In this document: in pieces, positions 12,914 to 36,855 of the stretch
Position numbering within the stretch: the stretch's first letter is position 1
How the letters are laid out: every line of letters begins with the position of its first letter
IMG/VR virus record: IMGVR_UViG_3300025687_000022
DNA: 64,000 nt
From: a virus
Reading direction: 5' to 3' (one strand)
Program-made: the position numbers and the translations under genes
Notes under the pieces: generated by a model
Told to the model about the DNA's origin: nothing
Database searches by the model: none
The model's input: the letters and a program-made list of their open reading frames with translations, nothing else

Positions 12914-13144
12914 TTAATTGCCTCTAAAATACTTTGACAGGATTGCTTCAAGAGCATCGTGCATTTCATTTTCCAATTGTATTGCTTGTTCTTCTGATAT
13001 ATCAATATTCATTGGTAAACGAACTTTAACTCCAACAACATTGGGTCCAATATCCATATCATATATGGCACCCGGTGTAAGACAGGCGCGCTCTTCATCT
13101 GGATTTTTGATGTAATCTTTCCAATTTTCTAATAATAGTTTCAT
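12914..13144 (-). CDS. Small protein with MKLLLENW leader (putative internal head protein)
   Basis: N-terminus MKLLLENWKDYI shared with 22244 and 36325 ORFs. Confidence 0.6.
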   Translation of the reverse strand: MKLLLENWKDYIKNPDEERACLTPGAIYDMDIGPNVVGVKVRLPMNIDISEEQAIQLENEMHDALEAILSKYFRGN

Positions 13145-13147
13145 AGT

Positions 13148-14428
13148 TTATCCTACGAAGATTGGTAGCGGAGATTGCTTGAAAGTATTTGCAGCAGCTT
13201 CAGCGGTTTCAGAATCTTGTTTAGCAAGTTCATTGTATGTGACTTTATCGAGGATCTCCATTAATTTATCTTTTAATTGTTGCTGTTCGTCTTTTGCCTG
13301 CGACAATAACTCTGAATGGTTTAGTGTAACAGATTCGCCTGGGATTGGCATAGTTGTATATTTGCCTCGTACTTGTCCAAGCATTTCTTTACATAACGCC
13401 AAAGCATACTTACGAATCCATTGTTTGCCAATAGAGTTGATGTTTGCATATGGAAGATTATCAAAAGGAAGAGTATTGATGTTGTTAATGCCGTCTACGC
13501 CATCATTATAATTTGCATTTACATCCCAGGAGTTTGCATTATCAACATAAAAGTTGACCCAAACACGATTGTATTCTGAATCTCCAAAACCAAACTTATC
13601 TGGCTGAGGAAATAATCTTAATTTGTTGTCTCTTAGCTCATAAGAATAATGAGAGGTTCTGGTATAAATTGAATCTTCGTACATGATTGCTTGAAGTTTA
13701 TTTTGCCAAGTTGGGATAATCTCAAATGTAGAATCATCAGCAAATTGTCCGTAAGTTGAATAATTACCAACAACGCCTACGCCACCATAATAACCGTAGA
13801 AACGCCACATAGCACGAGGAGACTTATAAAAAACTTTAGTAATAATAACCCTATTCGTTCCAACTGCACCAGAATAAGGCACAGCATTTCCAGCATCGTC
13901 AACACCAGAATCTGAAGCGCTAACAATAATTGTTTGTAAATCGTAGTCTTGAACACCTTCTGTTATACTGAAAGAAGCTGAATAAATTGGTGTTGTCCCG
14001 CCAAAGCCGGCAATCGTTGACATTACATCACCGACTCCGCGAGCGTGTGCGATTTGAAATCTTGGATAACGAAGGTTTACAGAAGATGGACCTTCTTTTA
14101 ATTCACCTTTATGGTCAAATGTTCCTGTTTGTTCTCCAAGAACACTTGATACAATGTTCTGTGCTTGATGAAGATTTACAATATAAGAATATTCAAGCAC
14201 AGCTTCTTCGTATGCCGTATAAACATCAGCAGCAGTTAATTCAATATCAACAACAGAACCACCAAGTTTTTTGAAAACATAATTAACTTGAAGTGCTGCC
14301 CCACTAAGAAAGTCTGATGAACCAGTATAAATACCATAAGGCACTGCTGATGCAACATCAGATGCAGTACCAGTAGATGGTAAAACTAAAGCGCTAACCT
14401 GTGATAATGGATTAAGGTTTGTTGGCAT
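13148..14428 (-). CDS. Neck / head-tail adaptor (gp13-like)
   Basis: KLGGSVVDIELT and WIRKYALALCKEMLGQVRGKY..IPG..VTLN motifs. Confidence 0.85.
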   Translation of the reverse strand: MPTNLNPLSQVSALVLPSTGTASDVASAVPYGIYTGSSDFLSGAALQVNYVFKKLGGSVVDIELTAADVYTAYEEAVLEYSYIVNLHQAQNIVSSVLGEQTGTFDHKGELKEGPSSVNLRYPRFQIAHARGVGDVMSTIAGFGGTTPIYSASFSITEGVQDYDLQTIIVSASDSGVDDAGNAVPYSGAVGTNRVIITKVFYKSPRAMWRFYGYYGGVGVVGNYSTYGQFADDSTFEIIPTWQNKLQAIMYEDSIYTRTSHYSYELRDNKLRLFPQPDKFGFGDSEYNRVWVNFYVDNANSWDVNANYNDGVDGINNINTLPFDNLPYANINSIGKQWIRKYALALCKEMLGQVRGKYTTMPIPGESVTLNHSELLSQAKDEQQQLKDKLMEILDKVTYNELAKQDSETAEAAANTFKQSPLPIFVG

Positions 14429-14448
14429 TTGTAGAAGTTTCCTTTAAT

Positions 14449-14640
14449 TTACTCTGCTGATTTTTTACTGCGAGTGCTTTTACGGATAGTTTTTTTAACT
14501 GATTCTGGGGCAGGTTGTGGCTCGATAGGGGCAGCTTCTGCAACAGGCTCCACGACTGGCTGTGGCGCTGGAACAGGAGCGGGTGCCGCTGGAGCTTCAA
14601 CAGCTTTTGAGCGTAGTAGTTTCTTTTTTCGAATATTCAT
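14449..14640 (-). CDS. Small basic Pro/Ala-rich protein
   Basis: AAGGAG SD and its own upstream motif; Lys/Arg-rich ends flanking a Pro/Ala/Glu linker. Confidence 0.7.
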   Translation of the reverse strand: MNIRKKKLLRSKAVEAPAAPAPVPAPQPVVEPVAEAAPIEPQPAPESVKKTIRKSTRSKKSAE

Positions 14641-14666
14641 GTTTAACTCCTTTAACGAAACTATAG

Positions 14667-14674
14667 TAAGTAGT
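14667..14674 (-). promoter_or_regulatory. ACTACTTA motif variant
   Basis: One-base variant of the recurrent octamer, just downstream of the capsid terminator. Confidence 0.55.
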
Positions 14675-14679
14675 TATGG

Positions 14680-14713: not shown

Positions 14714-14738
14714 AGCTATCATTTATAGCTTATTGGTT

Positions 14739-16550
14739 CTAGGAGCCAGACTCGCCTAGAAGACCACGGATGACGACTAGACCATAAAGGTCTGGACGGA
14801 CCATCTTCTTCGCATAACGGGTCATGACCCCCTTGCGAGGCACGAAGTCCTCTGGACCAAAGATGGTTGGAGTGGTCTGTAGTGGAACGTATGGAGCGTA
14901 AACGTAACCGCTTTCTAGGAAAGAGCTACCTCTACGACCAACGAGGACCACGTTGCGTAGGAAGTATGGGTCAACAATGACATCAAACTTCTTGCTTAGT
15001 GAGCCAACCTTGACTGCACCAACAGAACCAGACTCATCATCAGCGGTAACAGAAGCACGGAAACCAGCGGTGAACTCTAGAATGTTAGCAACTTCAGGTC
15101 CGACGACGATGAAGTTAGCGCCACCTCTAAGAGTCTTGCGGTGAATCTGTGCAGAAACATCGTTGATGGTTTCGACTAGAGTCTCGTACCACTCGCTAAC
15201 AGTACCAGTGAAGTCTGGAGCGGCAGCAGAAGCGCCGATCTCAGTACCAGTTTCGCGGTTAACGAATAGACCTGGAGAGCGAGCCCAATAGTAGGTGCCA
15301 GCGGTAGCACCGTTAACGAGGTCCGCTAGAATCTCACGGTCGATTTCTAGAGCAATCTGCTCGGATAGGATGCTGGTTAGCTCAACCTCTGCATCGAGGT
15401 TGTGATAAGCGTTTAGATCCTGACCAAGCTCTGGTGTCCACTTAGCCTTTAGCTTCTTGGTTTGAGCGGTAACAGCGATAGAATCAACTTTGATGTCGAT
15501 CTCTGGGATTAGCTCAGAACCTTCGAGTCCCCACTCTGATGCACCGACAACAGCACCAAGAGCGGTAGCGCTGGTTAGATTGTCGCGAAGTGCAAAAGAT
15601 GCAGTAAGACCAACAGCCTCGGCAACTGCGCCAGTGTTGATATCGTCAGCTGTCGTGCCAGAAGGAGCAACAACCGTGAATAGTAGTTCATCGGCAGAAA
15701 CTAAGCCAGTTGCGACATCGGCGGCAGAAGCAACACGAGTTAAGCGACGAACTAAGTTACCAGCAGAAGTAAGGGACGAGCCAATACCTGTCTGCTGAGT
15801 AATGGTGACATCGTTAAGCACGATTGGAGCCGTGTTGTCAAGATCGATGTTGTTGCCAGTATAGCTAGCTTGAGCAACAGCAAAAACTGCAACAGCGTAA
15901 GCTGTGCTTGAGCCACTTAAAGCTAGAATGTCTGGATCGAACTGTAGAAGCTTTTTCTGAGCCTCAGAAGCGGAATCCAGATCGAAAGCCTGTAGATCAT
16001 AGCCGCTTAAGGCAACCTCAACACTGCCGGTTGGTGAAGCGTAAGCATAACCACGAGCACCGACTGTACGAGCACCACCAAAGTCAACCTTAGCGCTGTT
16101 TAGAAGATCAACGCCACCAGTGATCTGGGAGCCAACCTGATCAGTACCGTAAATGGACTTATCAGCAATGTTGCCAAGACGACTAGTCTGTGAGCCAGAA
16201 GCACCTAGATTTGGTGAGAACACGAAGTCTAGGAAGAAAATAAGCCCAGATGGTAGGCTCATTGGCTGAACGCTAACGAGATCGTTGGCGATTAGACCAG
16301 CGAAAACGCGGCGAACAATTGGGAATGCGACGGCAGCGAAGCCCTCAACATCACCAGCAGACATGCTGGAAGACTCACGGAGTAGTTCCTTTGCTTGGTT
16401 CTCAAGCAGACGAGCCATAGAAGCGCGTTTACGGTCGTTGTTTAGACCCTCTAGGAGTCCAGTGCGCTCCCATTTCTTTAATAGCGCGTTAGATTCTGCG
16501 CGCATATCACGATTGACAACACCTTCGGTCAATCTTTCGATAATAGACAT
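14739..16550 (-). CDS. Major capsid protein (T4 gp23-like)
   Basis: VQPMSLPSGLIFFL, KLKAKWTPELGQDLNAYHNLDAEVEL, YAPYVPL, PRKGVMTRY; AGGAGGT SD. Confidence 0.97.
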   Translation of the reverse strand: MSIIERLTEGVVNRDMRAESNALLKKWERTGLLEGLNNDRKRASMARLLENQAKELLRESSSMSAGDVEGFAAVAFPIVRRVFAGLIANDLVSVQPMSLPSGLIFFLDFVFSPNLGASGSQTSRLGNIADKSIYGTDQVGSQITGGVDLLNSAKVDFGGARTVGARGYAYASPTGSVEVALSGYDLQAFDLDSASEAQKKLLQFDPDILALSGSSTAYAVAVFAVAQASYTGNNIDLDNTAPIVLNDVTITQQTGIGSSLTSAGNLVRRLTRVASAADVATGLVSADELLFTVVAPSGTTADDINTGAVAEAVGLTASFALRDNLTSATALGAVVGASEWGLEGSELIPEIDIKVDSIAVTAQTKKLKAKWTPELGQDLNAYHNLDAEVELTSILSEQIALEIDREILADLVNGATAGTYYWARSPGLFVNRETGTEIGASAAAPDFTGTVSEWYETLVETINDVSAQIHRKTLRGGANFIVVGPEVANILEFTAGFRASVTADDESGSVGAVKVGSLSKKFDVIVDPYFLRNVVLVGRRGSSFLESGYVYAPYVPLQTTPTIFGPEDFVPRKGVMTRYAKKMVRPDLYGLVVIRGLLGESGS

Positions 16551-16565
16551 AAGATATACCTCCTT

Positions 16566-17588
16566 TTATTTGATACCTGCTAGTCTACGCATACGTTCTG
16601 CGAACGCATCAGTTTGTGTGCTTTCCTGACGGGAAGCGCGGATAACAGAAGAAGGACGATGAATAGCTTCGCTTAGTGATTTTGGACTGTGACGTTCGCC
16701 AGCAGACTCCACTGTGCTTTGAAGTGTTTCGTAGATTGTCTTTGCTTCTGAAACAGAATCTGCGCGGGAAATAGCTTCGACAATTTTATTCTTTTGTCGC
16801 TCATTAAAGGAGGTACTTCTTAATGCACGATTCGTGTATAATAAACGAGCATTTGAAAGGTTAACGCTTTGTAGTGTTTCTTTCAATTCGCTTGTAGCTT
16901 GCTCGTAGTTTTGAAGGCGATCTTGAAGTTGTTTATTTTCAAAAACAAGCTCTTCTTGTGCCTTTTTAAGATCTTCTAACTCTTGTTGTAGTTCGGTGCT
17001 ACGACGATGAGCCATTTCTTTTTCCATTTGATATTTCTTGTCGCTAGCGGAGCGACCAGCCCAACCTGAAAGGTCGGCACCCATATCAACCATTAGTTTT
17101 TCAACGATAGAATCAACTAAATCTTCTTCAGAAAGTTCTTCTTGTTCTTCTTCAATTTCAATTTCTTCAGATAAATCTTCGCTTTCTTCTTCTATAGCTT
17201 CTTCAATGTTGATTTCCTCTTCTTCGGAAAGTTCTGCTTTTAAAGCTTCAACAGATTCGCGAAGAGCACCAAGATCAAGATTAAATTGAACTTCTTCGTC
17301 TTCAGTTGGAATATTTGTTAGGTTTGAGCCCTGCATGTCGCTTAGGTCGCTAGTGGCTGCGTAAGGAACGTCTTCTAATTCTTCCTCAAGGGCTTCATCG
17401 GCAGGCGCAACTGCTGCAGTGTCTGATAATTCTGCCCCCAAGCCAAGCTCGTCTTGTTCCAGCAATTGCTCTAATGTACTGCGAACTTCATCAGAGTATT
17501 TATCAATAACTGATGCCTCGGCATTTTTTAATGCCGCTTCGCGAAGTGCTTTTGCGTCAATAATAGCTTCTTTTAGTAAGCTTGACAT
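16566..17588 (-). CDS. Prohead core scaffold (gp22-like)
   Basis: Acidic coiled-coil protein directly upstream of MCP with many (L/I)xE sites; ends RMRRLAGIK. Confidence 0.8.
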   Translation of the reverse strand: MSSLLKEAIIDAKALREAALKNAEASVIDKYSDEVRSTLEQLLEQDELGLGAELSDTAAVAPADEALEEELEDVPYAATSDLSDMQGSNLTNIPTEDEEVQFNLDLGALRESVEALKAELSEEEEINIEEAIEEESEDLSEEIEIEEEQEELSEEDLVDSIVEKLMVDMGADLSGWAGRSASDKKYQMEKEMAHRRSTELQQELEDLKKAQEELVFENKQLQDRLQNYEQATSELKETLQSVNLSNARLLYTNRALRSTSFNERQKNKIVEAISRADSVSEAKTIYETLQSTVESAGERHSPKSLSEAIHRPSSVIRASRQESTQTDAFAERMRRLAGIK

Positions 17589-18561: not shown

Positions 18562-18569
18562 TAAGTAGT
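18562..18569 (-). promoter_or_regulatory. ACTACTTA motif variant
   Basis: Octamer variant 23 nt before the 18539 ATG. Confidence 0.55.
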
Positions 18570-18814
18570 TAGTTATTGTTTCTTGCGCGCTTTTCTGTCA
18601 TTCTTTGTTTTTTTAGCTCTTCGCGTCTGCGGCGTCTTTGTGCTCTAAGTCGCTTTTCTCTTTTAGCAACAGATGGCTTTGTGTAATAAGAATTTTCTCT
18701 AACTTGTTCTACGATTCGCTCTTTTTTTGTTTTCTTGATAAATCTGCGAATCATTCTTTCAACGTTTCCTTTACATTGATTTATATCAACACCAAAATTA
18801 GTTGGTTTTTTCAT
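18569..18814 (-). CDS. rpsU: Phage-encoded ribosomal protein bS21
   Basis: NVERMIRRFIKKTKKERIVEQVRENSYYTKPSVAKREKR aligns by eye with bS21 (E. coli [30 protein letters not shown]); ATGA overlap with upstream gene. Confidence 0.9.
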   Translation of the reverse strand: MKKPTNFGVDINQCKGNVERMIRRFIKKTKKERIVEQVRENSYYTKPSVAKREKRLRAQRRRRREELKKQRMTEKRARNNN

Positions 18815-19230
18815 TGCATTGCCTTCCAAATCTTTGAAGCGCCACCCATAAGAGAGCTAATGTCAACGCCAGAGTCCGTAGGATCTCCTAAATCAACTGC
18901 TCCTGCTTTTGGTGCCGCTGCTTCGTAACTAGTCATTGGTTCTGTATTTTCAAACAAATCAACACCACCATAAGCGTCTTTTCCAATCGCATCCATTAAC
19001 TTGCGACGATGCTCGGTTAGTTTTGCTTTTGTTTGTTCTGCTTGTCGTTTCATTTGAATTCTTTCAGGCTCTCTTTGAACATTGGATCTTGATTCAACTA
19101 CAAGATTACCTTGCATGCCTTTAGCGACTTCTGAAACAATATTAGATAAAAGCCCTTCTTCTATGAGGACTTCTTGAATACACTCTTTTACAAGTGGCTT
19201 AATAAGACTTTTTAATTCGTTTTTTTTCAT
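18811..19230 (-). CDS. Head-module hypothetical protein with MKKNELKSLIK..VKE leader
   Basis: Translationally coupled within head module; amphipathic leader with LIEE site. Confidence 0.6.
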   Translation of the reverse strand: MKKNELKSLIKPLVKECIQEVLIEEGLLSNIVSEVAKGMQGNLVVESRSNVQREPERIQMKRQAEQTKAKLTEHRRKLMDAIGKDAYGGVDLFENTEPMTSYEAAAPKAGAVDLGDPTDSGVDISSLMGGASKIWKAMQ

Positions 19231-20903
19231 TTTATACCCGCTAGGATCTTCATCCTATCATAACTTACAGATTCTTGTTGAGTTTTTGCTTCTGGTTCTT
19301 GGTAATTAGGGTTTTCATAAATCGCCATAGCAAAATTATCAAATTTCCCAGAGCCATACAAAGCCCTGTATGCATAGTACACAGCTTTTTTATCTTGTGA
19401 GTTGAGCTTATCAAAAGTTGCTTTTAGACCTCCTTTCTTATTAACAGATTTAGCTTTTACAACATAATTTCTGTTAATAAGAGATGTATTCTTATCGCCG
19501 TAAATTTGCTTACCGGGATTGTTGACAGAAGCCTCGTTAACAAGTCGAGCCGTCTGAGAACTTAAAAGCTCATCTCCCATAAATCTACCTAAGAAGTTGG
19601 CAAACTTATCTAAGTATTGTTTAAAAGTATCTTCACTTTTTTCCTCTTCTTTAGCGTTGTTTTTGAATGATTCATATGCTGCTTTAAAATTCTCGTCGGT
19701 AAACTTTTCTTCTGAGTACATGAATTTTCTCTGCTCACGCTCCCGTTGCTCTGGCTCTTGAACTGGTGCCGATGTATCGCCTACTGGGGCGTCCGTGGCG
19801 TCGGTATCTGCGCTATCCGGGGCGTCGGTGTCTGCTGCTCCTGGTTGTTGAACTGGTTTCTCGCCATTTTGCTGGTCGTCTGGGCGTGGAGGTGCTGCTC
19901 CAGGGTCAGATTGTTTGCTCGGTGGTCCAGGGAAACTTGATTGGCTCGATGTAGCCGTTGGTTCTGCTGGCGCTTCTGGACTACCAGAAGAAACATCTTT
20001 ACCAGCAAACAACTCTATAAACTTTTTCTTTATTGGTTCTCTTTTTTCGTTGCCGGCTCCAAAAGTGCTAAGGTAGGTTAAAACAAATTCTTTTACCCTT
20101 TCATTAGGTTCTTTATACCATTCTATAATTTTGTCAATATCTTCTTTTCCAATTCCAAATCGACTACCTAATAGTTCTTTGTAAACTTTCTTGAAATTTT
20201 CTTTATTTTCAGCATTTATTAGTTCATCAACCAATACATTTCTTTGATAATCCGTCAGACCTCCTGATTCCGGCGTATCTGTTCCTGCTGTTGACGCTAT
20301 TTGTGCTTGTTGTGCAGAAGACGCACCCAAAGCTTTGCTAGATTCTGGATTTAATTTGATTTTATTGTTTCTTAGGAGTTTTACAATAACTCTTATAATC
20401 TTGTCTCTATCTGGTCCCTTTGGTATATTAGATAAAGCTTTAATGGTTTCTGGAGCATCAATAATTCTTCTAGATTTCTTTTCTTCCAAAACATTGAAGC
20501 CAGCATTCTTCAAGTCCGTAGCCAACGCTTTTAAGATTGTATTTAAAGTTTTGCTATCGATACCAGCTTTGGCTAATTGTGATTGGATTCCTTTGCCTCT
20601 TTTCCCACGGAAAATGTATACATCTTTTTGTTGATCTTCCACTTCTTCTTCGGCGTCCTCAATAGCCGCTGCGACAGCTTCCTCTGGGACACCTTTGTTT
20701 TTAAGCATTTCGATGTATTGATCGATTTGATTTAACATTTTTTCTCTTTGTTTTCGTGGCGCGGCGGCGTAATTTTGCAAAGCTGGAACTAATACATTAC
20801 TGAGATCATCTATCTCTTTTTGAGAATATTGTCGCTCTTGTAAAAAGCTACGCCATTTATCCACTATAACTTTATCGTTTTTAAAGCTTGACCAACTACT
20901 CAT
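19227..20903 (-). CDS. Putative internal core/cargo protein (558 aa)
   Basis: N-terminal DKWRSFLQE, Pro-rich linker, C-terminal RMKILAGIK like the scaffold. Confidence 0.55.
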   Translation of the reverse strand: MSSWSSFKNDKVIVDKWRSFLQERQYSQKEIDDLSNVLVPALQNYAAAPRKQREKMLNQIDQYIEMLKNKGVPEEAVAAAIEDAEEEVEDQQKDVYIFRGKRGKGIQSQLAKAGIDSKTLNTILKALATDLKNAGFNVLEEKKSRRIIDAPETIKALSNIPKGPDRDKIIRVIVKLLRNNKIKLNPESSKALGASSAQQAQIASTAGTDTPESGGLTDYQRNVLVDELINAENKENFKKVYKELLGSRFGIGKEDIDKIIEWYKEPNERVKEFVLTYLSTFGAGNEKREPIKKKFIELFAGKDVSSGSPEAPAEPTATSSQSSFPGPPSKQSDPGAAPPRPDDQQNGEKPVQQPGAADTDAPDSADTDATDAPVGDTSAPVQEPEQREREQRKFMYSEEKFTDENFKAAYESFKNNAKEEEKSEDTFKQYLDKFANFLGRFMGDELLSSQTARLVNEASVNNPGKQIYGDKNTSLINRNYVVKAKSVNKKGGLKATFDKLNSQDKKAVYYAYRALYGSGKFDNFAMAIYENPNYQEPEAKTQQESVSYDRMKILAGIK

Positions 20904-21501
20904 CTTCTAATACCTGATTAATTAAGCGATTGATTTTATCTGCTTTTGTAAATACGTTGATGTTATGTTCTTTGGCTTCTTTCATCATAAAAGCGCCAGG
21001 GGTAGAAGGCTCAGAAACAAAGTCAAAACAAATAAGTTGGAAGTCGTCTTCAACCATAGTTTGACCATTTGATTCTCTAACTGAACCCATGCCTCTTGAA
21101 GAAATACCAAGAGTAACGCCAGACTCCACAAGAGAACGTAGAATTTTACCAGAAGGAGTTTCTAAAATTTTTGCTTTACCCATAACAGCTTTGCCATCCC
21201 ACCAGACTTCTGTAATCATGTGAGAAGCGTTCTTTAAATTAATAACTGAATCTTCTGGGTGGTCTAATTCACCTAAAGCTCTATTTTCTTTTACAAGTTT
21301 TTGGTAGTTCTTCATTTCTCTTTGGAGAACACGATAAGGGTAAACTCGACCGTTACCATTGCGGACATCTGCTTCTTGTAGTTTGCCACTAAGGATCATA
21401 CCACCATTAGCAACAAATCGCTTTTCTTCTTCAGTAAGAAGGTCTTTGCATATTCCGCTCTCGCAAAGAGCATAAAATTCTCTTAATAATTTCTGACTCA
21501 T
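20896..21501 (-). CDS. Prohead core protease (gp21-like)
   Basis: NGNGRVYP, ALGELDHP, GISSRGMGS, DFVSEPSTPGA. Confidence 0.95.
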   Translation of the reverse strand: MSQKLLREFYALCESGICKDLLTEEEKRFVANGGMILSGKLQEADVRNGNGRVYPYRVLQREMKNYQKLVKENRALGELDHPEDSVINLKNASHMITEVWWDGKAVMGKAKILETPSGKILRSLVESGVTLGISSRGMGSVRESNGQTMVEDDFQLICFDFVSEPSTPGAFMMKEAKEHNINVFTKADKINRLINQVLEDE

Positions 21502-21616: not shown

Positions 21617-21922
21617 TTATTTGGCTTTAGAACCAATATTTTGCTCTAACATTTTAAGAATTCTTTCTAGCATAGTTTTGTGCTGGGACAAATCAATCCC
21701 TGGCCTTGATGCTAAATCGGAGATATATTTTTCAATTTGATTAATAAGTCCAGTCTCTTGACCAGTTAATTCTTTTTCAGTGTCAGAAATTCTAGATAAA
21801 GCATCTTTTCTTCTTTGAGAAGCACTGGCGGTTTGAGTAGCTAGCTTTGTAGGATCAGCAGTTTGATCGTTTGCCAACTCTTCAAGAATAATTTCTTTTA
21901 ATCTACTCTTCGTGATCTTCAT
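21617..21922 (-). CDS. Protein with MKITKSRLKEIILEE leader (putative internal head protein)
   Basis: Shared leader; GAGG SD favours ATG 21922. Confidence 0.65.
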   Translation of the reverse strand: MKITKSRLKEIILEELANDQTADPTKLATQTASASQRRKDALSRISDTEKELTGQETGLINQIEKYISDLASRPGIDLSQHKTMLERILKMLEQNIGSKAK

Positions 21923-22247
21923 TTCCAATCCTCATGTTTTGCGCTATTTGAATTCCTTGATCACCAAATACCATGCTAAGAGCATAAGATGTTCCAGAGG
22001 AAAGTGAGCCAAGTAAAAGTGCGTTTACTAAACTAACTTCAAAATTAAATAGTTGCGTCATTGGAGAAAGCAACATTAAAATCCATCCAACGTGAAAACC
22101 CATGCACATAGGACAATGAAATACTTTTCCATAACCTTTATATGATTGCTTTTCTGGTCGCAATCTTTTTAACAAAGGCATGTCGCTATAAACTAAAATC
22201 TGCGTTAGTCCGTAGGCGATTAAGGCGAATAATATTAGTTCTATCAT
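21903..22247 (-). CDS. Small membrane protein with CPMC motif (DUF1360-like)
   Basis: Three hydrophobic segments; FHCPMCMGFHVG. Confidence 0.6.
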   Translation of the reverse strand: MIELILFALIAYGLTQILVYSDMPLLKRLRPEKQSYKGYGKVFHCPMCMGFHVGWILMLLSPMTQLFNFEVSLVNALLLGSLSSGTSYALSMVFGDQGIQIAQNMRIGNEDHEE

Positions 22248-22702
22248 TTCTTTACCTGATTTGAATTAAATTTACTAGCCAAGAATTTCTGAAGCTCAGC
22301 ATTTACATCTGGAATTGGGGCAAGATCATCCATGTCTTCTATGGTTTTCATAAGATCATTAATAAAAGCAACTTCGATGGGATCATCAACAATTTTGGAA
22401 ACATCATCATCAACGTTTAACTTATCTAACCCTGTTGCTGATTTGAATGAGTCTTCGGCACCATATAGCTTTCCAACAATTTCTTTAGCATCTTTCGCAC
22501 CCTTCCAAAGAGAGAAGATATTACTAACAACTGGTATCTGTTCTATTGCTGCCTCTGCTGCCTTCTTACCCAACTCTTGCCCTGCTTCCATAGCGCGGTG
22601 AGTTTTGATTAGTTTTCTTAAATCTCCAACCGTTTCTAGAGGTGCTTCTTGTATAAGAAACTTATCCCAATTTTCCATTATAAGTTTCATGTGCTTAGAC
22701 AT
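22244..22702 (-). CDS. Protein with MKLIMENWDKFL leader (putative internal head protein)
   Basis: Shared leader; AGGAG SD. Confidence 0.65.
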   Translation of the reverse strand: MSKHMKLIMENWDKFLIQEAPLETVGDLRKLIKTHRAMEAGQELGKKAAEAAIEQIPVVSNIFSLWKGAKDAKEIVGKLYGAEDSFKSATGLDKLNVDDDVSKIVDDPIEVAFINDLMKTIEDMDDLAPIPDVNAELQKFLASKFNSNQVKK

Positions 22703-23252: not shown

Positions 23253-24063
23253 TATCAATCTCCCCAACTAATGCTTGTGTTGCTAAAACTGTCATTAAAA
23301 CATTTTCGTTAATGGTTTGTCTTGAGAAGCTATCTAATCTGCTAATGATTTGTTCTGTTTTTTGAACCATATCATTGTCGTCTTTTATCTCAGAGTTTTT
23401 GCAAGCTTCTGTTAGTTTTGTTTTTAATCTTTTGATTTCTTTATTCAAGAAAATCTTAAGTTCTAATGCATTATCAGCAAAAGAAGAAATGTAATGATTT
23501 AATAGTTCTTTTTGTTCTGACAAAAGAGCATCGTCGTATTTCTCATTAAATTTCTTAACGAAACTTTTATAAGTTAAAGCATCGATCTGCGCTTGCTCAG
23601 CGTTTGGAGTGCTTTTAGACATTTGCTGAATAATGTTCTGCTCTAACATTACTCGTGTTTTTGGAGTTGTTTTTAACGAGAAAATCTGATCAATGGTGGC
23701 AAGACTTTTATAATTGGGCACAAAGTTATTGAAAATATCTGAGGATAGTTCTTTGTTAATGTCGTTGATTAATTCTGTTTGTTGGTTAAACAAACCTTGT
23801 GTGTCTATTAGTCTTTTAGCTAAACGAACTTCTTTAATCAGTCTTTCGCCCATTTCTTGCTCAATACCCTGATTGCTATACAAAGAACGATAACACTCTA
23901 AATCTTCTGATAAAAGGCTATCAGAGTTAAAATGCTTTTTAATAACTGAAATTGTTTTATCTCTTCGTTCTGTGTCGCCCTTCATGATAGCAACAGTTGC
24001 TTCACGAATTAACGCTTCATAGACAAACGCGGTATTTCTTTTTTTGTTATGCCTTGTCTTCAT
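23236..24063 (-). CDS. Hypothetical protein next to portal (possible prohead core component)
   Basis: Helical 275-aa ORF overlapping portal end. Confidence 0.6.
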   Translation of the reverse strand: MKTRHNKKRNTAFVYEALIREATVAIMKGDTERRDKTISVIKKHFNSDSLLSEDLECYRSLYSNQGIEQEMGERLIKEVRLAKRLIDTQGLFNQQTELINDINKELSSDIFNNFVPNYKSLATIDQIFSLKTTPKTRVMLEQNIIQQMSKSTPNAEQAQIDALTYKSFVKKFNEKYDDALLSEQKELLNHYISSFADNALELKIFLNKEIKRLKTKLTEACKNSEIKDDNDMVQKTEQIISRLDSFSRQTINENVLMTVLATQALVGEIDNGDND

Positions 24064-26061: not shown

Positions 26062-27645
26062 TCACTTTATAATCCATTTGTATTGATCATACATTAATCT
26101 TGCTTCTGTCATTTTATCCATTATATTATCTTCTTTATGTCCTATCTGTCCTTTGATGCGAGTATTCATTGTTGTTTTAGTTGTGTAGATTGCATTAACA
26201 AAAGCTTTTGAGTAGTTTAGATCTCTAGAGTTCGCTTGAATCGCAGTATCTCTGACCCAGCACGCAATTGCAAGAGCCATAATTAAATCATCATGGTATC
26301 CTTTCATTGCTTGTGGCTTGCCATTTTTCCAAACAAAAGTTTTCATTTCACTAACAACACGAGATGAATTTATTTTAATTAGTTTATTTCTGATAAACTC
26401 TTCAAATTTCGCAATAATCAAAGGTCGTGTCTTCACACTTGTCGAAAAGCCTGCAACAGCAGTATTTCTAACTTCTGCTTGATATTGCTCAACATACTCG
26501 TGTGTAGACTTAATAGAATAATAAATATTTGGATAACCATATTCTATCAGTTTATCCAAAACTGTGTAGCCAATGTTATTGTTTTCAACCACCATCATGC
26601 AATTACCGTATTCTCTACCAACTTGATTTAACATGTTGGCAAACAAATCTGGCGATGGTTTACCTTGATATTCGCCTACAATCTCTAATGTTTCTAATTC
26701 AAGTATATGAAACGTAGAAAAGTCTTCTCCATCGCCTCTTGCAACATCAGCGACAAGAAGATAGTTAGATGTAGGATCAAATTCTTTCCAAATCCAAAAG
26801 TTACGATCAAAGCCGGTGCGATGCTTTGGCTCGCAAACATTTGCCAATAACCATTCCATGTCTTCTGCGTCAATAACAGTTTCACCAGATGTATTAAAGT
26901 TGCACTCTAACTCCTGCGCGATCTGGCGTCTAGACATGTTGCGTGTTTCTTTTTTAAACCAAACTTCATCTCGCTCGGGGTGGACATGCCACGGAAGCGT
27001 TGTTAAGTGAAAGTTATTTGATTTTGATTCTGCATCGGCGCACGTTTTATGAAACCAGTTACCAACACCGTTTGGAGTTGATAGCGCGATACAGCGACCA
27101 CCAGTAGACAACGTTGGATATAGACCAGTCCATAGCTCTTCTAAGCCTTCAATGTGCGCTGCCTCATCAAGAACTAATAAAGAAAGAGCTTCAGAACGAC
27201 CAGCATCGCCAGAAGTTGAAGCAGCTTTAATTGAAGAACCATTTGATAATTCAAAAGAAGTAGAGTTATCAGTTTTGATTTTTGCAATCAAAATCCACTC
27301 TGGTAGGTTCTTCATTATTTTCTTGACTTTCTTAACCAAGTTAGTTGCTGTAGCAAACTTGGTTGCCATAACAAGAACAGCTTTATCGCGATGAAACAAC
27401 ATCATCCAAGCGATATAGCCTGCTGTAACTGTAGAAATACCTAACTGTCTTGCTTTAAGAATAACGTTAAATCGATGATCGTTAAAGTCAGATAACAATT
27501 TATCCTGAAAAGGATAAGTATTAAAAAGTATTAACCCATGCATAGGATGGGAAATACGTGCATAAGTTTTCAGAAAGTATGCTGGGTCTTTACCGCATTT
27601 AAGTATTTCTTTTACACGCTGTTTTTTATCTAGCTGAAAAGACAT
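26062..27645 (-). CDS. Terminase large subunit (gp17-like)
   Basis: KARQLGIST (Walker A), LVLDEAAH (Walker B), STPNG, ADVARG, HDDLIMALA. Confidence 0.97.
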   Translation of the reverse strand: MSFQLDKKQRVKEILKCGKDPAYFLKTYARISHPMHGLILFNTYPFQDKLLSDFNDHRFNVILKARQLGISTVTAGYIAWMMLFHRDKAVLVMATKFATATNLVKKVKKIMKNLPEWILIAKIKTDNSTSFELSNGSSIKAASTSGDAGRSEALSLLVLDEAAHIEGLEELWTGLYPTLSTGGRCIALSTPNGVGNWFHKTCADAESKSNNFHLTTLPWHVHPERDEVWFKKETRNMSRRQIAQELECNFNTSGETVIDAEDMEWLLANVCEPKHRTGFDRNFWIWKEFDPTSNYLLVADVARGDGEDFSTFHILELETLEIVGEYQGKPSPDLFANMLNQVGREYGNCMMVVENNNIGYTVLDKLIEYGYPNIYYSIKSTHEYVEQYQAEVRNTAVAGFSTSVKTRPLIIAKFEEFIRNKLIKINSSRVVSEMKTFVWKNGKPQAMKGYHDDLIMALAIACWVRDTAIQANSRDLNYSKAFVNAIYTTKTTMNTRIKGQIGHKEDNIMDKMTEARLMYDQYKWIIK

Positions 27646-29931: not shown

Positions 29932-30135
29932 CTACTCTAATCCTTTTAATTTAACAATAGCATCAATTACAGATTGACCACCGAGATAAAGACCGGAGAT
30001 AACAACCCAATCTGCTGATTCTAAACTACCAAAAGCCATAAGTGCAGTGGCAGCGACCCAAACCAACAGTTTACGTGATGTTAGTTTTTCTAATCCCCTG
30101 TCTAATAAAGCTTCTTTTCTTTCTTCACTCATCAT
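29932..30135 (-). CDS. Holin-like small membrane protein
   Basis: 67 aa, LTSRKLL then two hydrophobic segments ending YLGGQSVID. Confidence 0.55.
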   Translation of the reverse strand: MMSEERKEALLDRGLEKLTSRKLLVWVAATALMAFGSLESADWVVISGLYLGGQSVIDAIVKLKGLE

Positions 30136-30358
30136 CTTTCACCTCTTTTATTTCACCCATGTCGCGTAAAACACTTGCAACATAAGCATCTGCTCTTTCC
30201 TTGCTTAAACCTTTAGTTGTTTGAATACACTTTGATTTACCTGCAAATGTTTTATAAAGACCTTTCTCAAAGCAATCTTTCTTTTTTTCTTTTTCTGCCA
30301 TAAGCCTATCAAGCTCTTCTGCGATTATTTGTTTTAAAGTTGATTTATTAATTTTCAT
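30125..30358 (-). CDS. Small protein with MKINKSTLKQIIAEE leader
   Basis: Shared leader followed by a short basic domain with two Cys. Confidence 0.65.
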   Translation of the reverse strand: MKINKSTLKQIIAEELDRLMAEKEKKKDCFEKGLYKTFAGKSKCIQTTKGLSKERADAYVASVLRDMGEIKEVKDDE

Positions 30359-31197
30359 GGTCGGATTCCTTTGGATTCGTTTAAAGCTTCCATAAACTTC
30401 TCGTGTGCTGTACCGCTGCTATTAGATTGAAACAGTCGTCGTAATTCTGGTGGCAGCAACCAGCAAAATTCGAGGTCGAGGGTCGTCAGGTTCGTGCAGC
30501 CCTCCAGCACGTCTACGTTCTCCAGCGACCTGCAATCGCTGAGATAGAGTTTCGTCAGGCTCGTAAGCCCCTCCAACCCGTCTACGTTCTGCAGCGACCG
30601 GCAACTGTAGAGGTAGAGGGTCGTCAGGTTCGTGCATTCCTTTAGCCCGTCTACGTTCTGCAGCGACGAGCACATTTCGAGGTTGAGGGTCGTCAGGTTT
30701 GTAAGACCCTGGAGCCCGTCTACATTCTGCAGCGACTTACACCAGTAAGCGTCGAGGGTCGTCAGGTTCGGTAGGGACTTCAGCACGTCTACGTTCTCCA
30801 GCGACGTGCACCTTTCGAGGTCGAGGGTCGTCAGGTTCGTGAGTCCCTCTAATCCGTTTACGTTCTGCAGCTTCTTGCAAAAGCGGAGGTCTATTTGTTC
30901 TGTAATATTTAGTTCACTTAAGCCAGACAAGAAATCAACGTCTTGTATTTTTGACCTTGCAAACCGATCAATCACTTTTAGCTTTGCTAAGATCTGATCA
31001 TTTTCTGTTGGAGCGTTAGTTTCAATATCGTCTTTGAGCGTAGAATAAAGCACTACTCCTTGTGCAAACTGCCAAGGATCTTCATGATCTAAAAACTCTA
31101 AAATCTTTCTAGCATATTGTTGATCTTCATTTTCTGTTAAAAACTTAACAACTTCTTCTTTGATTACTTGCTTTAACTTAGTTTTGGTTATTTTCAT
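30355..31197 (-). CDS. Leucine-rich repeat protein with MKITKTKLKQVIKEE leader
   Basis: About 6-7 23-aa repeats NLTTLxLxxCxSLxNVDxLxxxT. Confidence 0.9.
   Translation of the reverse strand: MKITKTKLKQVIKEEVVKFLTENEDQQYARKILEFLDHEDPWQFAQGVVLYSTLKDDIETNAPTENDQILAKLKVIDRFARSKIQDVDFLSGLSELNITEQIDLRFCKKLQNVNGLEGLTNLTTLDLERCTSLENVDVLKSLPNLTTLDAYWCKSLQNVDGLQGLTNLTTLNLEMCSSLQNVDGLKECTNLTTLYLYSCRSLQNVDGLEGLTSLTKLYLSDCRSLENVDVLEGCTNLTTLDLEFCWLLPPELRRLFQSNSSGTAHEKFMEALNESKGIRP
30453..30900 (-). repeat. 69-nt tandem repeat array encoding the LRRs
   Basis: Units start at 30837, 30768, 30699, 30630, 30561, 30492; shared AACCTGACGACCCTC and TCGCTGSAGAACGTAGAC. Confidence 0.9.
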
Positions 31198-31420: not shown

Positions 31421-31424
31421 AACA

Positions 31425-31708: not shown

Positions 31709-34700
31709 CTATTGTTTTATTTTTGCAAAGTCGGCTTCTTTGTCAATAACGATCTGCATATCAACACAATCCTTCAAAGAATCAAGATGCGAGATCAACA
31801 AAACGTTTTTAAAATACACTTTAATTAGTTCTAAAATCCGAATAAACCCATCCATATTTTCAGCATCTAGCGCTGTTCCTGGTTCATCAAGTATAAACAG
31901 ATCTGCTTTAGGCAAAGAAGACACACTAAGTAGCGATAATCTTATTGCTATCGCTGCCATTGTTTTTTCTGCACCAGAAGCCATTTCAATAGGTCTTTCG
32001 TCGTAAGCGGGGTGTTTAATGAAAATATCAAATTTATTTCCAGAACTATCAAAGAAAATTTCAAAGTCCACAATATTTGCTAGAATCTTTGCGATCTCTT
32101 CATTAATAACAGGAATTTTATTTTTAATAATGTCATACGAGATTCCGTTAGTATGCATACAGCGCATAAACAAATCGTAAGCCGTGAACTCACGTTGCAA
32201 GCGCAAATAAGATTCTTTGTCTTTTATAATGTTTTTAAGCGCTTCTTCACAAGAACCAACTTGTTTATAAAGTTGCAAAGTATCTCGCTCGCATCTTGAA
32301 AGCTTGTTTTTTTCATTTGATAAATCTTTTTCAATTTTTGATTTGTCTTGGATTAGTCGCTGAAGATTTTCGATTACTTCTTTGTTTTCTTCATAATAAG
32401 AAATTCGCTTTTCGATTTCTATCAACTCACTTTCAAATCTAGCTACACTTGTTTTGTTGCGCTCTCTTTCTAACTTGGCTGTAGAAATCTCAGCCTGCAA
32501 ACTACGAGTAAGATTTACAATATTTTCGTATTGTTCAATTCGTTTGTTAATTGTACCAAGATCGTAGTTTGCAAATCTTAAGTTTGTTTGTTGTAATTCA
32601 GATTCAACAGAACCAGAAGACGCAACAGCAACGTGAGCATCTTTAATAAATCTACAAGTAGGAAAAGAATTACCACAAGGTATGCTGTTTAATAGTTTTT
32701 TCTTTTTATCGATATCTTGCAAATCACTCATTAAAGAATTTATTTTATCTTTTAATTTATTTGCTTCTTCTTTTTCGACGTGGATCGAGCTAATGTCGAT
32801 CATCGAAACTAAAGCATTTGCTTTGGCTAGCTTTTCTTCTTTAAGTCCAATAGCACTTGACGCTTCTGTAATCTTTTCATTTACGCAAGACAAAAGGTAT
32901 TTTGTTTCATTTTGCTTATTGACAAGTTGGGCAACATCGATAAAATCTGTTGGAGCAGATGCTATTTGATTTTTTAAATTGTTCAACTTTTCGTTAAGAA
33001 CAGAAATTTTAATTTTCAACTCTTCGCACTTTGATTGATTTACCTCAGAGTCTTGCTTTGCCTTAGCTAACCTTTCTTCTGTTTCAGAAATCTCAACATC
33101 AAAATCTCTATCAGAGCATTTGTTAAGAAGAACTTTTGTATCACGCGAATCTTCTTTTGCTAATTTGAACTTTTGATCAAAAAACTCAAGATCCAAAAAC
33201 TTTGCAATAATCTCTTTGCGCTTTGTTGAACCTTCATCGACAAAAGAAAATGCGCCGTGCTGAGAGGCAAGAGAAGACATAGAAAAATCTTCTATGGTGC
33301 CAAAGTGCTTGCGAATATTTGCGTCGGTTTGAGCCCGCGTGGTGCCGTTGAGAGAGGTAGTTTCTCCTGTGGTCTTGTCGTGCTCTTCAAAGTTTAGCTC
33401 AGTCTTTGCTTCTGTTATTTCTTCTTTCTTAACGCGACGAGTGTACTTAACAGATTGTCTGGTAATATAATAAACTTTATCTCCGATCTCAATCTCTAGT
33501 TCTCCGCGCCCATAGTCTCTATTTTGATTAATAACATTTAAATTCTTGCGCTCATTTTTCGAAGTCGTGTTGAAAAGTGTATAAAGCGCTGCGTCAATAA
33601 CAGAACTTTTGCCACTAAAGTTCTTGCCAAAAATTCCGATAATCCCAGAGAGACTGTCAAAATTAATGTTGTTATCTTCTCCATAATTAAAAAGATTGTC
33701 CCATTTAAAGTTGTTGATTTTCCAGTTGACATTTCTTGAAACCTCTTCGTTGTCTTCTACAATTTTATTATACTTACGATTTAGTTCGTAAATAGACTCA
33801 AGAGTATCTTCATCGATCTGATAATCCTTAAGGTACTCTGAAATAAGTTCTTCTTGTACGTTTATGTCGCGTAGGTTCTCGCAATACAAATCTCCAGCAA
33901 TTTCTTCAACGGAACCACGAGAACCAGCAGCACGGTTGAGAAAAGTAACACTTTCAGGCTTGTATTTATGTTTTGCAACATCAAGCGCTTTACGCATAAC
34001 GTCGAGAGGCAAATTATTTTCACTTACCAAACGCAAACGAGCGCCACTTGGGACGCTTGTTTTTCTTGGTATCTTGCCAGTTGGAGTTAGCGTAATAGTA
34101 AAAAATGGCTTTGGATTATTAAAAACAATATGATCAACATTCCAATCATTTTTAGATTTTATGTTCCAAAGCAACAAGCCTTTATCGTTGCTCTCTCCGT
34201 GATTTTGCTGAACGGTAGAGCCAGCATACCAAACTCGTTTTGTTTTATCCAGCGCCTGACAACGATGAATGTCGCCAAGCATAGCAAAATCAAAATCGTT
34301 AAAAATAGATATATCGTCTTCGCCGTTTACCATTTCCCAATCAGCATCGGTTTTACAACCGCTGATAGAGCCATGATAAAGCGCTATGTTGATTTTTGAT
34401 GAATCTGTTGGTTGCGTCCAATTATCTCTATCAAAAACAGAAAGTACATTTAAACATAAATCATTATTTAAATGTACTTCACCGGAGTTTTTAAGCAAAT
34501 GAAGATGAGGAAGATTTAATGCCTCAACGATTGGAGTAATCGCATCTTGGCGGTTACTGTTCTTAAGATTGCCATCGTGGTTACCAAGAATAATATAAGT
34601 TGGCGCAATTAAAGAAAGATTGCGAAAAAAATCAGAGCACATATCAACAAACTCAGGAGAAATTTGAGTTTTAGTATGTGCGATATCTCCACAGTGAACA

Positions 34701-34816
34701 ATATAATCTACTTTATTTTCTCTAAGAGAATCGTAAATTTGTTCAAATATTTCTTTGTATTCTTGATGGTATTTTAAATTTTTAATATGAGTATCAGCAA
34801 TATGAGCGATCTTCAT
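31709..34816 (-). CDS. Fused SbcD(Mre11)-SbcC(Rad50) nuclease-ATPase
   Basis: ADTH, CGDIAH, GNHD, YHG, GDIH; then GKNFSGKS, ASGAEK, FILDEPGTALD, ISH with central coiled coil. Confidence 0.93.
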   Translation of the reverse strand: MKIAHIADTHIKNLKYHQEYKEIFEQIYDSLRENKVDYIVHCGDIAHTKTQISPEFVDMCSDFFRNLSLIAPTYIILGNHDGNLKNSNRQDAITPIVEALNLPHLHLLKNSGEVHLNNDLCLNVLSVFDRDNWTQPTDSSKINIALYHGSISGCKTDADWEMVNGEDDISIFNDFDFAMLGDIHRCQALDKTKRVWYAGSTVQQNHGESNDKGLLLWNIKSKNDWNVDHIVFNNPKPFFTITLTPTGKIPRKTSVPSGARLRLVSENNLPLDVMRKALDVAKHKYKPESVTFLNRAAGSRGSVEEIAGDLYCENLRDINVQEELISEYLKDYQIDEDTLESIYELNRKYNKIVEDNEEVSRNVNWKINNFKWDNLFNYGEDNNINFDSLSGIIGIFGKNFSGKSSVIDAALYTLFNTTSKNERKNLNVINQNRDYGRGELEIEIGDKVYYITRQSVKYTRRVKKEEITEAKTELNFEEHDKTTGETTSLNGTTRAQTDANIRKHFGTIEDFSMSSLASQHGAFSFVDEGSTKRKEIIAKFLDLEFFDQKFKLAKEDSRDTKVLLNKCSDRDFDVEISETEERLAKAKQDSEVNQSKCEELKIKISVLNEKLNNLKNQIASAPTDFIDVAQLVNKQNETKYLLSCVNEKITEASSAIGLKEEKLAKANALVSMIDISSIHVEKEEANKLKDKINSLMSDLQDIDKKKKLLNSIPCGNSFPTCRFIKDAHVAVASSGSVESELQQTNLRFANYDLGTINKRIEQYENIVNLTRSLQAEISTAKLERERNKTSVARFESELIEIEKRISYYEENKEVIENLQRLIQDKSKIEKDLSNEKNKLSRCERDTLQLYKQVGSCEEALKNIIKDKESYLRLQREFTAYDLFMRCMHTNGISYDIIKNKIPVINEEIAKILANIVDFEIFFDSSGNKFDIFIKHPAYDERPIEMASGAEKTMAAIAIRLSLLSVSSLPKADLFILDEPGTALDAENMDGFIRILELIKVYFKNVLLISHLDSLKDCVDMQIVIDKEADFAKIKQ

Positions 34817-35076
34817 TCAGCACCCTGGACATTATCTCCGATAAGCTTCTGGTTTAAATAGTCAGCATTGTTTTCAACCAGCATCTCTACATAAGCATCA
34901 TATGTTTCTTCTTCTATATCCTGTAGAGGGACCGAAATAACATTTGGCTTAACGCTTTCAATACGCGAACGCTCGTATACAATATCAAAAACTAATCCAG
35001 CAGCCGCATGTCCCATGAAAAAAGAGATAACAACAACAGCAAAATAAAACACTCTATCAAAAAGAAGACTTTTCAT
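34813..35076 (-). CDS. Small membrane-anchored hypothetical protein
   Basis: Hydrophobic N-terminal segment; GGAGG SD. Confidence 0.6.
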   Translation of the reverse strand: MKSLLFDRVFYFAVVVISFFMGHAAAGLVFDIVYERSRIESVKPNVISVPLQDIEEETYDAYVEMLVENNADYLNQKLIGDNVQGAE

Positions 35077-35104
35077 CTCTTACCTCCATAAATAATATAA
35101 CTTA

Positions 35105-36328
35105 TTATTGAGGCGATGTCAAGGAGTCTATCTTTTGAATTCCTGCTCCGTAAAGGATTTTATTCAAAATTTTAAGCAGCTGTTCTTCGCTTTCAACACC
35201 ATTAGCTATTAGTGTTGCTTCTGGCTGTCTTTGATAATCGGACACAACTTTATTTATACCATCTTCAACAATTTCTTGATATAAATTGTATGCAACTGAC
35301 CATTCTAGAGCAATTACTTGTGCTTGAAGATCTTCATCGCCCCCAGGAAGGTCAGCATAGCGCATTTCAATATCGCCGCTATTAGATGGCCATTTTCCAG
35401 TATCTCCGAATACAAAATCTCTTAGATCTGAAATATTTTTGACATCATTTTTCAAAATATTTTCAATAACCCACTCCTTATACTGCTCTTTAGTGTCAAA
35501 AGAATTTGGCATAACAAGGTTATCTGGTATTTGATCGTAATCTATATATGCAATGCCGCCTGGAGCTTGTGTAGTGACATGCGCTCTTCTGTAATTTAAC
35601 CGACCAGAGTCAACTAATTGATCAATATGATTCCATAGAACTTCTACAGTTTCATCATTTGTTAAGTCGTCAAAAGCTTCAGCATTTATATTTCCATAGA
35701 AATCGTAGGCTTGGACTTGTGAAAGGTCAGGTGGTCCATCAGAAACTGCAAACGTCATACGCGGCTTCGAATCAGTTGCCATCATTTCTATTGCACTTTC
35801 TGGATCATCGGCAATAACGTTTATGTGATTAAAAATATCAGTACCTTGAGATAATGCTGACGCCAGCAACCCAGCTATAATTGCTTTTGTACCTCTTGTT
35901 TCTCTTCCGATTCTGTCTTTGATTTTTTGTATCGTTGCTCTCGCAAGATTTTCTTTTGACTCACCAGTTTCTTCAGAGTCGATACGATCAGCGAGTTTGG
36001 AAAAAAATCTTTTGACCATGTTAACATCTGGTTGCTCTGATTCGGAAAGTGTATTTAAAAAGTCCACAAGTTCATCTGCAATTTTAGATGATGGATCGGA
36101 TGATGGACCACCTGATGGATCACCCATTCCATGCACTTCAACTACTTGTTCTTTATCTGGAACTTGAAGAACTTTCGGTGGAGAAGCTAATCTTAAAAAT
36201 TCAGCAGTTTCTTTGGGAGATAATGTGTTGATTTCCGAAGAAAAAGAGCCGTTTTGTTCTTTCAAAAAAGCATTCACTTCTTCTTTAATAATTTGTTTTA
36301 ATCTTGTTTTTGTTATTAACATTTTCAT
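35105..36328 (-). CDS. Acidic protein with LITKTRLKQIIKEE leader (putative cargo)
   Basis: Shared leader ending AFLKE. Confidence 0.65.
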   Translation of the reverse strand: MKMLITKTRLKQIIKEEVNAFLKEQNGSFSSEINTLSPKETAEFLRLASPPKVLQVPDKEQVVEVHGMGDPSGGPSSDPSSKIADELVDFLNTLSESEQPDVNMVKRFFSKLADRIDSEETGESKENLARATIQKIKDRIGRETRGTKAIIAGLLASALSQGTDIFNHINVIADDPESAIEMMATDSKPRMTFAVSDGPPDLSQVQAYDFYGNINAEAFDDLTNDETVEVLWNHIDQLVDSGRLNYRRAHVTTQAPGGIAYIDYDQIPDNLVMPNSFDTKEQYKEWVIENILKNDVKNISDLRDFVFGDTGKWPSNSGDIEMRYADLPGGDEDLQAQVIALEWSVAYNLYQEIVEDGINKVVSDYQRQPEATLIANGVESEEQLLKILNKILYGAGIQKIDSLTSPQ

Positions 36329-36855
36329 GCTCCTTGCAAATATTTATCTTCTATAAGTTTTTTTAAGTAATACCGAACCCATACATTTTCAAAAGTGTTG
36401 ATAGTTGGATCAAAAAAATCTTTTAGAGGATATGTGTCATCCTCGTTTGTACCATCTGGGTGAACAAAAGAACCGTTCATGGGCGCCGAGAGCGATTCAA
36501 TAAGCGATAAATATGCAGGAATAAAACTTTCTATATCTTCTTTTGTTTGTATTTCTGATGCTTTTTTGCGAAGTTCTTTTATTTGTTTTATTTTTTCAGG
36601 CGTTTCATCACGAAATACATTTCCCCAATCAGGGTCTTCATCTGTGGTCAACAATTCAAAAAAAGATCGCTTTAAGTCTTTAACGGCAAGATTTTCTGCT
36701 TCGGCGTAAATGTCTTCAATGGCTAAAGGCGCAAGTTCGTATCCTTGCTCTACAGTATCTGGATCATCATTTGTTATTAGTTTATAAACTTGTTGTGCGT
36801 ATGGATCGGCAGCTTCTTTTAAAAACTTGCGCCAATTTTCAAATAGTAATTTCAT
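36325..36855 (-). CDS. Protein with MKLLFENWRKFLKE leader (putative cargo)
   Basis: Shared leader; ACTATTTA motif 39 nt upstream. Confidence 0.65.
   Translation of the reverse strand: MKLLFENWRKFLKEAADPYAQQVYKLITNDDPDTVEQGYELAPLAIEDIYAEAENLAVKDLKRSFFELLTTDEDPDWGNVFRDETPEKIKQIKELRKKASEIQTKEDIESFIPAYLSLIESLSAPMNGSFVHPDGTNEDDTYPLKDFFDPTINTFENVWVRYYLKKLIEDKYLQGA

Follow-up and report, generated by a model that had tools for sequence, protein, structure and literature searches.

Why should proteins that have no other detectable likeness begin with the same short peptide? This is the question raised by a 64,000-nucleotide stretch of viral DNA, IMG/VR record IMGVR_UViG_3300025687_000022 (the whole of which is called the window below), in which seven genes with unrelated bodies start with one of two N-terminal leaders, designated class A and class B. 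The window belongs to a distant T4-like marine myovirus. The answer that we favour, with a probability of roughly 0.58, is that both leaders are the equivalents in this lineage of the capsid targeting sequence (CTS) of phage T4: the tag would bring its cargo to the core of the prohead and would be cut by the S77 protease.

Two leader classes on unrelated proteins

An earlier note on this DNA had named nine leader peptides in two classes. All nine were present where it had placed them, on the minus strand at or near the starts of open reading frames (ORFs). Seven of the nine assignments stood, four in class A and three in class B; two supposed variants, on proteins of 139 aa and 558 aa, did not. 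Class A leaders are of the type MKITKxxLKQIIKEE, start at 21922, 30358, 31197 and 36322, and head four ORFs:

21617-21922, minus strand: class A leader protein of 101 aa, encoded in the head module immediately upstream of the protease, a position conserved in relatives
30125-30358, minus strand: class A leader protein of 77 aa with a basic body, recognised by its profile match
30355-31197, minus strand: class A leader protein of 280 aa with a leucine-rich-repeat (LRR) body (Pfam LRR_4, E 7.5e-20)
35105-36328, minus strand: class A leader protein of 405-407 aa with an acidic body; the leader runs from Met3, at coordinate 36322

Class B leaders, of the type MKL[LI]xENW..[FY][LI]xE, start at 13144, 22690 and 36855 and head three:

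12914-13144, minus strand: class B leader protein of 76 aa, recognised by a first-pass profile match and an MKLLxENW core
22244-22702, minus strand: class B leader protein of 152 aa, with the leader from Met5 (coordinate 22690), located between portal and protease as in relatives
36325-36855, minus strand: class B leader protein of 176 aa, beside the class A gene of 405 aa in the variable slot between the primase and SbcCD genes

The four class A leaders matched the class A profile with E values of 1e-13 to 1e-12 in the six-frame search described below. A class B profile built mostly from relatives gave 38.7 bits for the leader at 22690 and 32.7 bits for that at 36855. The protein at 13144, too short for this later set of scores, was assigned by its MKLLxENW core and by a first-pass match (E 3e-7) to a profile that had the protein itself as a seed.

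The two ORFs that were not retained are:

18811-19230, minus strand: head-module protein of 139 aa, not counted as class A, with LIE/IEE sites at residues 23-25
19227-20903, minus strand: low-complexity protein of 558 aa, not counted as class B, with the C-terminal motif of the scaffold at its end

When 1803 N-termini were ranked, the 139-aa protein, read earlier as a class A variant at 19230, scored -1.8 against the class A profile and came 377th. The 558-aa protein, whose supposed class B motif lies at about 20867, scored 3.8 against a profile built without it and came 93rd. Both have an (L/I)xE near residue 23.

The bodies of the nine proteins showed no detectable mutual similarity (best BLASTP E 0.095). 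For the class A protein of 405-407 aa, Pfam, PHROG and the ESM Atlas gave no usable match, and a homology search of a word index with the first 40 residues of its 407-aa form returned orthologues only. At the nucleotide level the class A leader copies are 53-73% identical, and the leaders at 31197 and 36322 differ in codon at 6 of 16 identical residues. Because conserved residues often use differing codons, it is the peptide that is conserved, and recent duplication of DNA does not explain the likeness.

Position, portability and spread of the leaders

Two sets of relatives, 200 IMG/VR loci in all, were searched. The first comprised 80 IMG/VR loci out of 503 matches to a protease query, which were translated in six frames (1.07 Mb) and searched with iterated profiles. 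The second comprised at least 120 further viral stretches found with a degenerate DNA pattern for an 8-residue core of class A. The first set gave 96 class A matches, all of which (96/96) started with ATG or GTG and lay at most 50 residues from the upstream stop; they were attached to 45 body clusters without a BLAST link. Class B gave 36 matches on 13 body clusters at the same 80 loci. In the loci found by the DNA pattern, 123 of 140 class A profile matches started with ATG or GTG, and one only lay more than 60 residues from the upstream stop. A start codon stood exactly 7 codons upstream of the 8-residue pattern in 75% of 161 viral matches; for the 120 matches that came from cellular genomes the share was 9% (Fisher p 1e-30). 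A profile scan of this and related genomes thus had the outcome that the earlier note predicted, almost exclusively N-terminal matches on diverse bodies, and the leaders are indeed portable tags. The restriction to N-termini holds for nearly all matches and breaks down in multi-copy proteins, whose internal leaders are flanked by protease-type sites.

When all 195 unique class A proteins were pooled they fell into 128 body clusters without a BLAST link, with a median length of 111 aa, and the only recognisable domains among 98 representatives were LRR (in this window), GNAT acetyltransferase and FliG_C. A search of 1.84 billion metagenomic cluster representatives with the leader profile returned 9,208 proteins (clusters at 50% identity) with E values of 0.001 or better. 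Bodies that are short and mostly without known domains, and tandem arrays of 5-7 small genes in relatives, might equally be expected from one fast-evolving paralogous family that grew by tandem duplication, in which the N-terminus is merely the slowest-evolving part and no address at all. We think this improbable: the bodies include clearly different folds (an LRR solenoid, GNAT and FliG_C), the 128 clusters remain without links, the two leader classes coexist in the same genomes, and a peptide kept across 9,208 clusters implies selection on the peptide itself.

Long or complete related contigs carried 2-8 class A and 0-10 class B matches each, often in tandem arrays, with up to 10 class B copies in one complete genome. 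A conserved leader, a hypervariable remainder and tandem arrays are also the pattern of the precursors of ribosomally synthesised and post-translationally modified peptides (RiPPs), and a modifying or export enzyme might then recognise the leaders in the way that it recognises those of RiPPs or bacteriocins. This seems to us barely credible, however. Bodies reach 400 aa and include folded domains, the genes belong to a lytic T4-like phage and lie near head genes, and neither a maturase nor a C39 peptidase-transporter was found among the scanned window proteins.

The slot between primase and SbcCD (34816-36867 in the window) is hypervariable. It was compared in eleven genomes, namely the window and L092, L109, L115, L118, L138, L144, L152, L163, L175 and L191, and ranged from 461 to 4,134 bp and from none to six tagged genes with differing bodies. 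Leader-tagged genes occupied it in seven of the eleven genomes, and other genomes had thioredoxin-like or GIY-YIG-like ORFs there.

True class A leaders were also seen on four marine contigs (L215, L247, L254 and L311) of metagenome-assembled genomes binned as Acidiferrobacteraceae, Gammaproteobacteria and Opitutia; these contigs probably represent phage DNA that was binned wrongly, not a sign of the host.

Protease-type sites within and between leaders

The leaders contain (L/I)xE motifs at fixed positions. In class A a [LIVM]xE ends at residue 14 in 79 of 80 leaders, and 57 of the 80 have a second site at residues 18-26. In class B an L-x-E occupies residues 4-6 and a second site, [FY][LI]xE, ends at residue 14-15 in two of the three window genes; the third, encoding the 76-aa protein at 13144, has the site at 4-6 only.

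Among the top database matches, metagenomic proteins with 2-4 class A leaders were common (P0004-P0153), one leader standing at residue 1 and the others internally. These multi-leader proteins may be polyproteins, or they may have arisen when tandem genes fused recently. The internal copies have kept the Met in 103 of 173 cases and lost it in 70, and they are usually preceded by a [LIVMF]xE and a linker of 2-4 residues. Such a site lay within the 6 residues before the copy in 111 of 168 cases, where 14.5 were expected from other positions in the same proteins. Protease-type sites before internal copies are thus about 8-fold over expectation, which is the pattern expected if the head protease cuts multi-unit precursors apart. 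The C-termini of single-unit leader proteins showed no enrichment of [LIVMF]xE. Part of the Glu/Lys signal before an internal Met could be the translated remnant of a ribosome-binding site, but this would leave unaccounted for the hydrophobic residue that stands two positions ahead of the Glu.

The internal copies also bear on the possibility that the conserved start reflects selection on the mRNA, as an A-rich signal for translation initiation, and not on the peptide. The first codons are rich in A and T (ATG AAA ATT ACN AAA), as such a signal would require. Yet the conserved residues are encoded by differing codons, the conservation reaches as far as residue 15-22, and the 70 internal copies without Met have kept the peptide all the same, which makes a translation signal highly improbable.

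Modelled with AlphaFold2 (AF2), the leader of the 101-aa class A protein formed a helix at residues 5-20 followed by a low-confidence linker, and that of the 280-aa protein a helix at residues 5-22 which ended at FLTE and stood apart from the LRR solenoid; the overall confidence of both models was low. The hydrophobic moment of the leader helices did not differ from that of shuffled sequences. A free helix followed by a flexible linker would also suit the main rival explanation, in which the common N-terminal helix serves interactions unrelated to the capsid, either oligomerisation or the docking of many small early proteins on one host or phage target. The presence of some tagged genes among replication genes, the predominance of acidic ORFans among the bodies and the existence of multi-copy motif proteins are in keeping with it. 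We nevertheless regard it as unlikely, for it accounts less well for the data: it leaves unexplained why (L/I)xE occurs at fixed positions, why protease-type sites are in roughly 8-fold excess before internal copies, and why there are tagged genes in the head module and a link to contigs encoding an S77 protease (see below).

A class A leader (P0004 residues 281-302, and two other database proteins) weakly matched the Pfam S_100 helix (E 5.7e-5), a fortuitous likeness of amphipathic helices.

The head module and its protease

Genes of the window were identified by PHROG and Pfam scans. Homologues of the T4 terminase, portal, protease, capsid protein and sheath were found with PHROG and make up a T4-like core module; every gene of the region is on the minus strand. 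The features to which the leader genes have to be related are:

36867-37802: primase
31709-34816: fused SbcD-SbcC (phrog_100 and phrog_77)
26062-27645: large terminase
24047-26053, minus strand: portal protein, gp20-like (phrog_213, E 2.9e-71), which marks the start of the head module
20896-21501, minus strand: prohead protease, Peptidase_S77 of the T4 gp21 family (PF03420, E 2.4e-34; PDB 5JBL, E 3e-20)
16566-17588, minus strand: scaffold, gp22-like, acidic and coiled-coil, with a C-terminal RMxxLAGIK motif (identified by [LI]xE density and alignment)
14739-16550, minus strand: major capsid protein, gp23-like, with a T4-like N-terminal propeptide (phrog_138, E 6.6e-70; PDB matches to T4 gp23)
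8531-11437: tail sheath

A gp21-type protease is encoded, as the earlier note had said, and it appears intact: GELDHP and GISSRG align with the catalytic motifs of T4 gp21, the structure 5JBL aligned too, and the catalytic His and Ser are retained. The propeptide of the capsid protein is clearly related to that of T4 gp23, and its LLE, which ends at residue 50, and its LRE, which ends at residue 59, do not vary among relatives. The scaffold has 4.7 [LI]xE sites per 100 aa, compared with 1.2 in the window proteome and 5.9 in T4 gp22. Since an S77 protease, a gp23-like propeptide and an LxE-rich scaffold are all there, T4-type maturation with a Glu-directed protease is present in this phage.

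The window carries a single gene of each leader class between portal and protease, the place that gp67 and gp68 take in T4. Seen from the side of the leaders, homologues of window genes other than leader genes were present at 86 of 120 leader loci and were mostly terminase, portal or protease. An S77 protease (PF03420) was encoded on nine of ten leader-bearing contigs of at least 100 kb, a figure for which there is no base rate among long marine viral contigs as a control.

The nearest cultured phages, to which the capsid protein is 42-48% identical, are Flavobacterium phage immuto, Microcystis phage Mel-JY01 and Rhodothermus phage RM378. A 7.3-kb IMG/VR contig (L002, IMGVR_UViG_3300008012_001601) encodes a protease 100% identical to that of the window and apparently comes from the same or a very close phage. 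The cluster of the 407-aa cargo protein was found on a contig of 161,402 bp, which gives a hint at genome size. The head module also holds a gene resembling that of ribosomal protein bS21 (18569-18829; phrog_21469, E 1e-4), and the SbcD-like and SbcC-like parts of 31709-34816 are joined in one frame of 1,035 aa.

A proposed role for the leaders

If the leaders are CTS equivalents, a short N-terminal helix (about 14-22 residues in class A and about 14 in class B) would draw whatever protein carries it into the scaffold core while the prohead assembles. The S77 prohead protease would then cut the tag off after the Glu of an (L/I)xE context. The predicted cuts lie in class A after I-x-E14 and often after L-x-E20-22, and in class B after L-x-E6 and [FY][LI]xE14. 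The mature cargo would remain in the head with the DNA and probably be released into the host at infection. By analogy with T4, the seven tagged proteins probably enter the capsid and are trimmed inside it. That they bind the core, are cleaved, remain in the virion and are injected is what we infer from sequence.

Several observations weigh against this proposal. The I-K-E-E core might belong to a conserved helix and nothing more, without being a cleavage site. The leader profiles found no match in the T4 head region scanned (L086) and show no likeness at profile level to the T4 CTS or to any protein of that region. Of the bodies, 60% are acidic, whereas the internal proteins of T4 are described as basic (PMC9026906). 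Among the cultured relatives tested none had the exact leaders; immuto had one weak class-A-like start. Finally, no leader match was found inside the scaffold, the protease, the capsid propeptide or other head proteins of this phage; because the leaders match no scaffold, protease or capsid-propeptide segment, a docking partner is not indicated.

Apart from the cultured relatives, a tblastn search of GenBank phages with a 22-residue consensus gave one weak match, and a search of the accessible literature library for the leader motif strings found no paper containing them.

Candidate docking partners and the LAGI motif

By eye, class A might be thought to mimic the N-terminus of the scaffold and class B the propeptide of the capsid protein. 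We rejected this idea, as these N-termini rank between 200 and 600 of 1803 against the leader profiles. A predicted complex of the scaffold with the 101-aa class A protein scored 0.00 in a run without controls and gives no verdict either way. The T4 late-promoter motif TATAAATA was uninformative in this window.

Another motif recurs at the ends of head proteins. In essentially all relatives R[MW]xxLAGIK terminates both the scaffold and a second protein of 430-800 aa (in the window 16566-17588 and 19227-20903). In immuto and several uncultured phages the LAGI motif, followed by ITE, stands instead at the N-terminus of small proteins (L001, 4774-5238; L088, L128, L133 and L164). Judged from these sequences, the LAGI motif looks like a third portable head address.

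This leads to a wider proposal, which we hold tentatively and at somewhat less than even odds. A clade of abundant marine myoviruses, distantly related to T4, may use interchangeable tags (A, B and, in cousins, the N-terminal LAGI copy) to load a large and fast-changing repertoire of proteins for delivery to the host, comprising hundreds to thousands of unrelated families and including polyproteins cut by the protease. If this is true, injected phage effectors such as anti-defence proteins could be listed from metagenomes by sequence alone. Outside the T-even phages this would be the first natural case of such tagging on a large scale, with a sequence-defined tag on about 9,200 metagenomic protein clusters whose functions are almost all unknown. 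A tag that means packaged and injected would give direct access to the proteins that abundant marine phages send first into their hosts, and it would also provide a natural set of loading tags with which cargo could be engineered into T4-type capsids.

Comparison with known systems

Three known systems share single traits with the leaders. In T4 the propeptides of Alt, gp67, gp68 and gp24, which gp21 removes, come close in the position of the site: a [LI]xE ends at residue 6 in Alt, gp67 and gp68, which may be compared with the L-x-E at residues 4-6 of class B. The class A and class B genes between portal and protease of the window occupy the place of gp67 and gp68, but their bodies have no detectable homology to these T4 proteins. 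In phiKZ-like giant phages (phiKZ, 201phi2-1, SPN3US) a protease related to gp21 trims many proteins packaged in the head, the ejection and inner-body proteins, after Glu, with several sites per propeptide (PMC9026906). These phages differ in their long propeptides, in the lack of a single short shared tag, in an S/A-x-E cleavage rule and in having the support of mass spectrometry. The C-terminal coat-binding peptides of P22-type scaffolds recall the terminal RMxxLAGIK shared by the scaffold and the 558-aa protein of the window. That motif, however, is C-terminal in this window and belongs to neither leader class.

The closest parallel is the CTS itself. T4 packs a handful of tagged internal proteins, one of which, IPI, is an anti-restriction factor. 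IPII and IPIII begin with MKTYQEFIAE, in which the site ends at residue 10; in IPI an ITE is found at residue 19. An Asp at the cut site prevents processing in T4 while leaving targeting intact. For packaging, the initial 10 residues of IPIII are enough; among them, positions 4 and 7 matter for targeting and positions 8 and 10 for processing (PMC9026906; PMC3012670). The internal proteins of T-even phages are diverse and have the CTS alone in common (PMC9026906; PMC3012670), and the CTS has been suggested to be a general route by which T4-like phages take new proteins into the head (PMC9026906). Like the CTS of IPI, IPII and IPIII, the leaders are short N-terminal peptides, here putative propeptides, on otherwise unrelated proteins; they end in (L/I)xE and occur in a genome that encodes an S77 protease. 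In both cases the cargo genes occupy variable loci at a distance from the head genes, and the primase-SbcCD slot recalls the loci of T-even internal proteins. A loose resemblance to class B can be seen by eye, with MK, Glu6, an aromatic residue and [IL]xE in common if an insertion of 4 residues is allowed.

The differences are of length, number and kind. Leaders are 14-22 residues long here and 10-19 in T4, and two classes coexist here. In place of three T4 internal proteins there are 7 tagged genes in a 64-kb window, 2-10 matches to one or other class on each long or complete related contig, and 9,208 metagenomic clusters. Most bodies here are acidic, multi-unit forms exist, and the system is known from sequence alone. 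Because the leaders resemble the CTS in the way their sequences behave and yet lack profile similarity to it, we file them as candidate users of the CTS principle, a variant of it and not a homologue.

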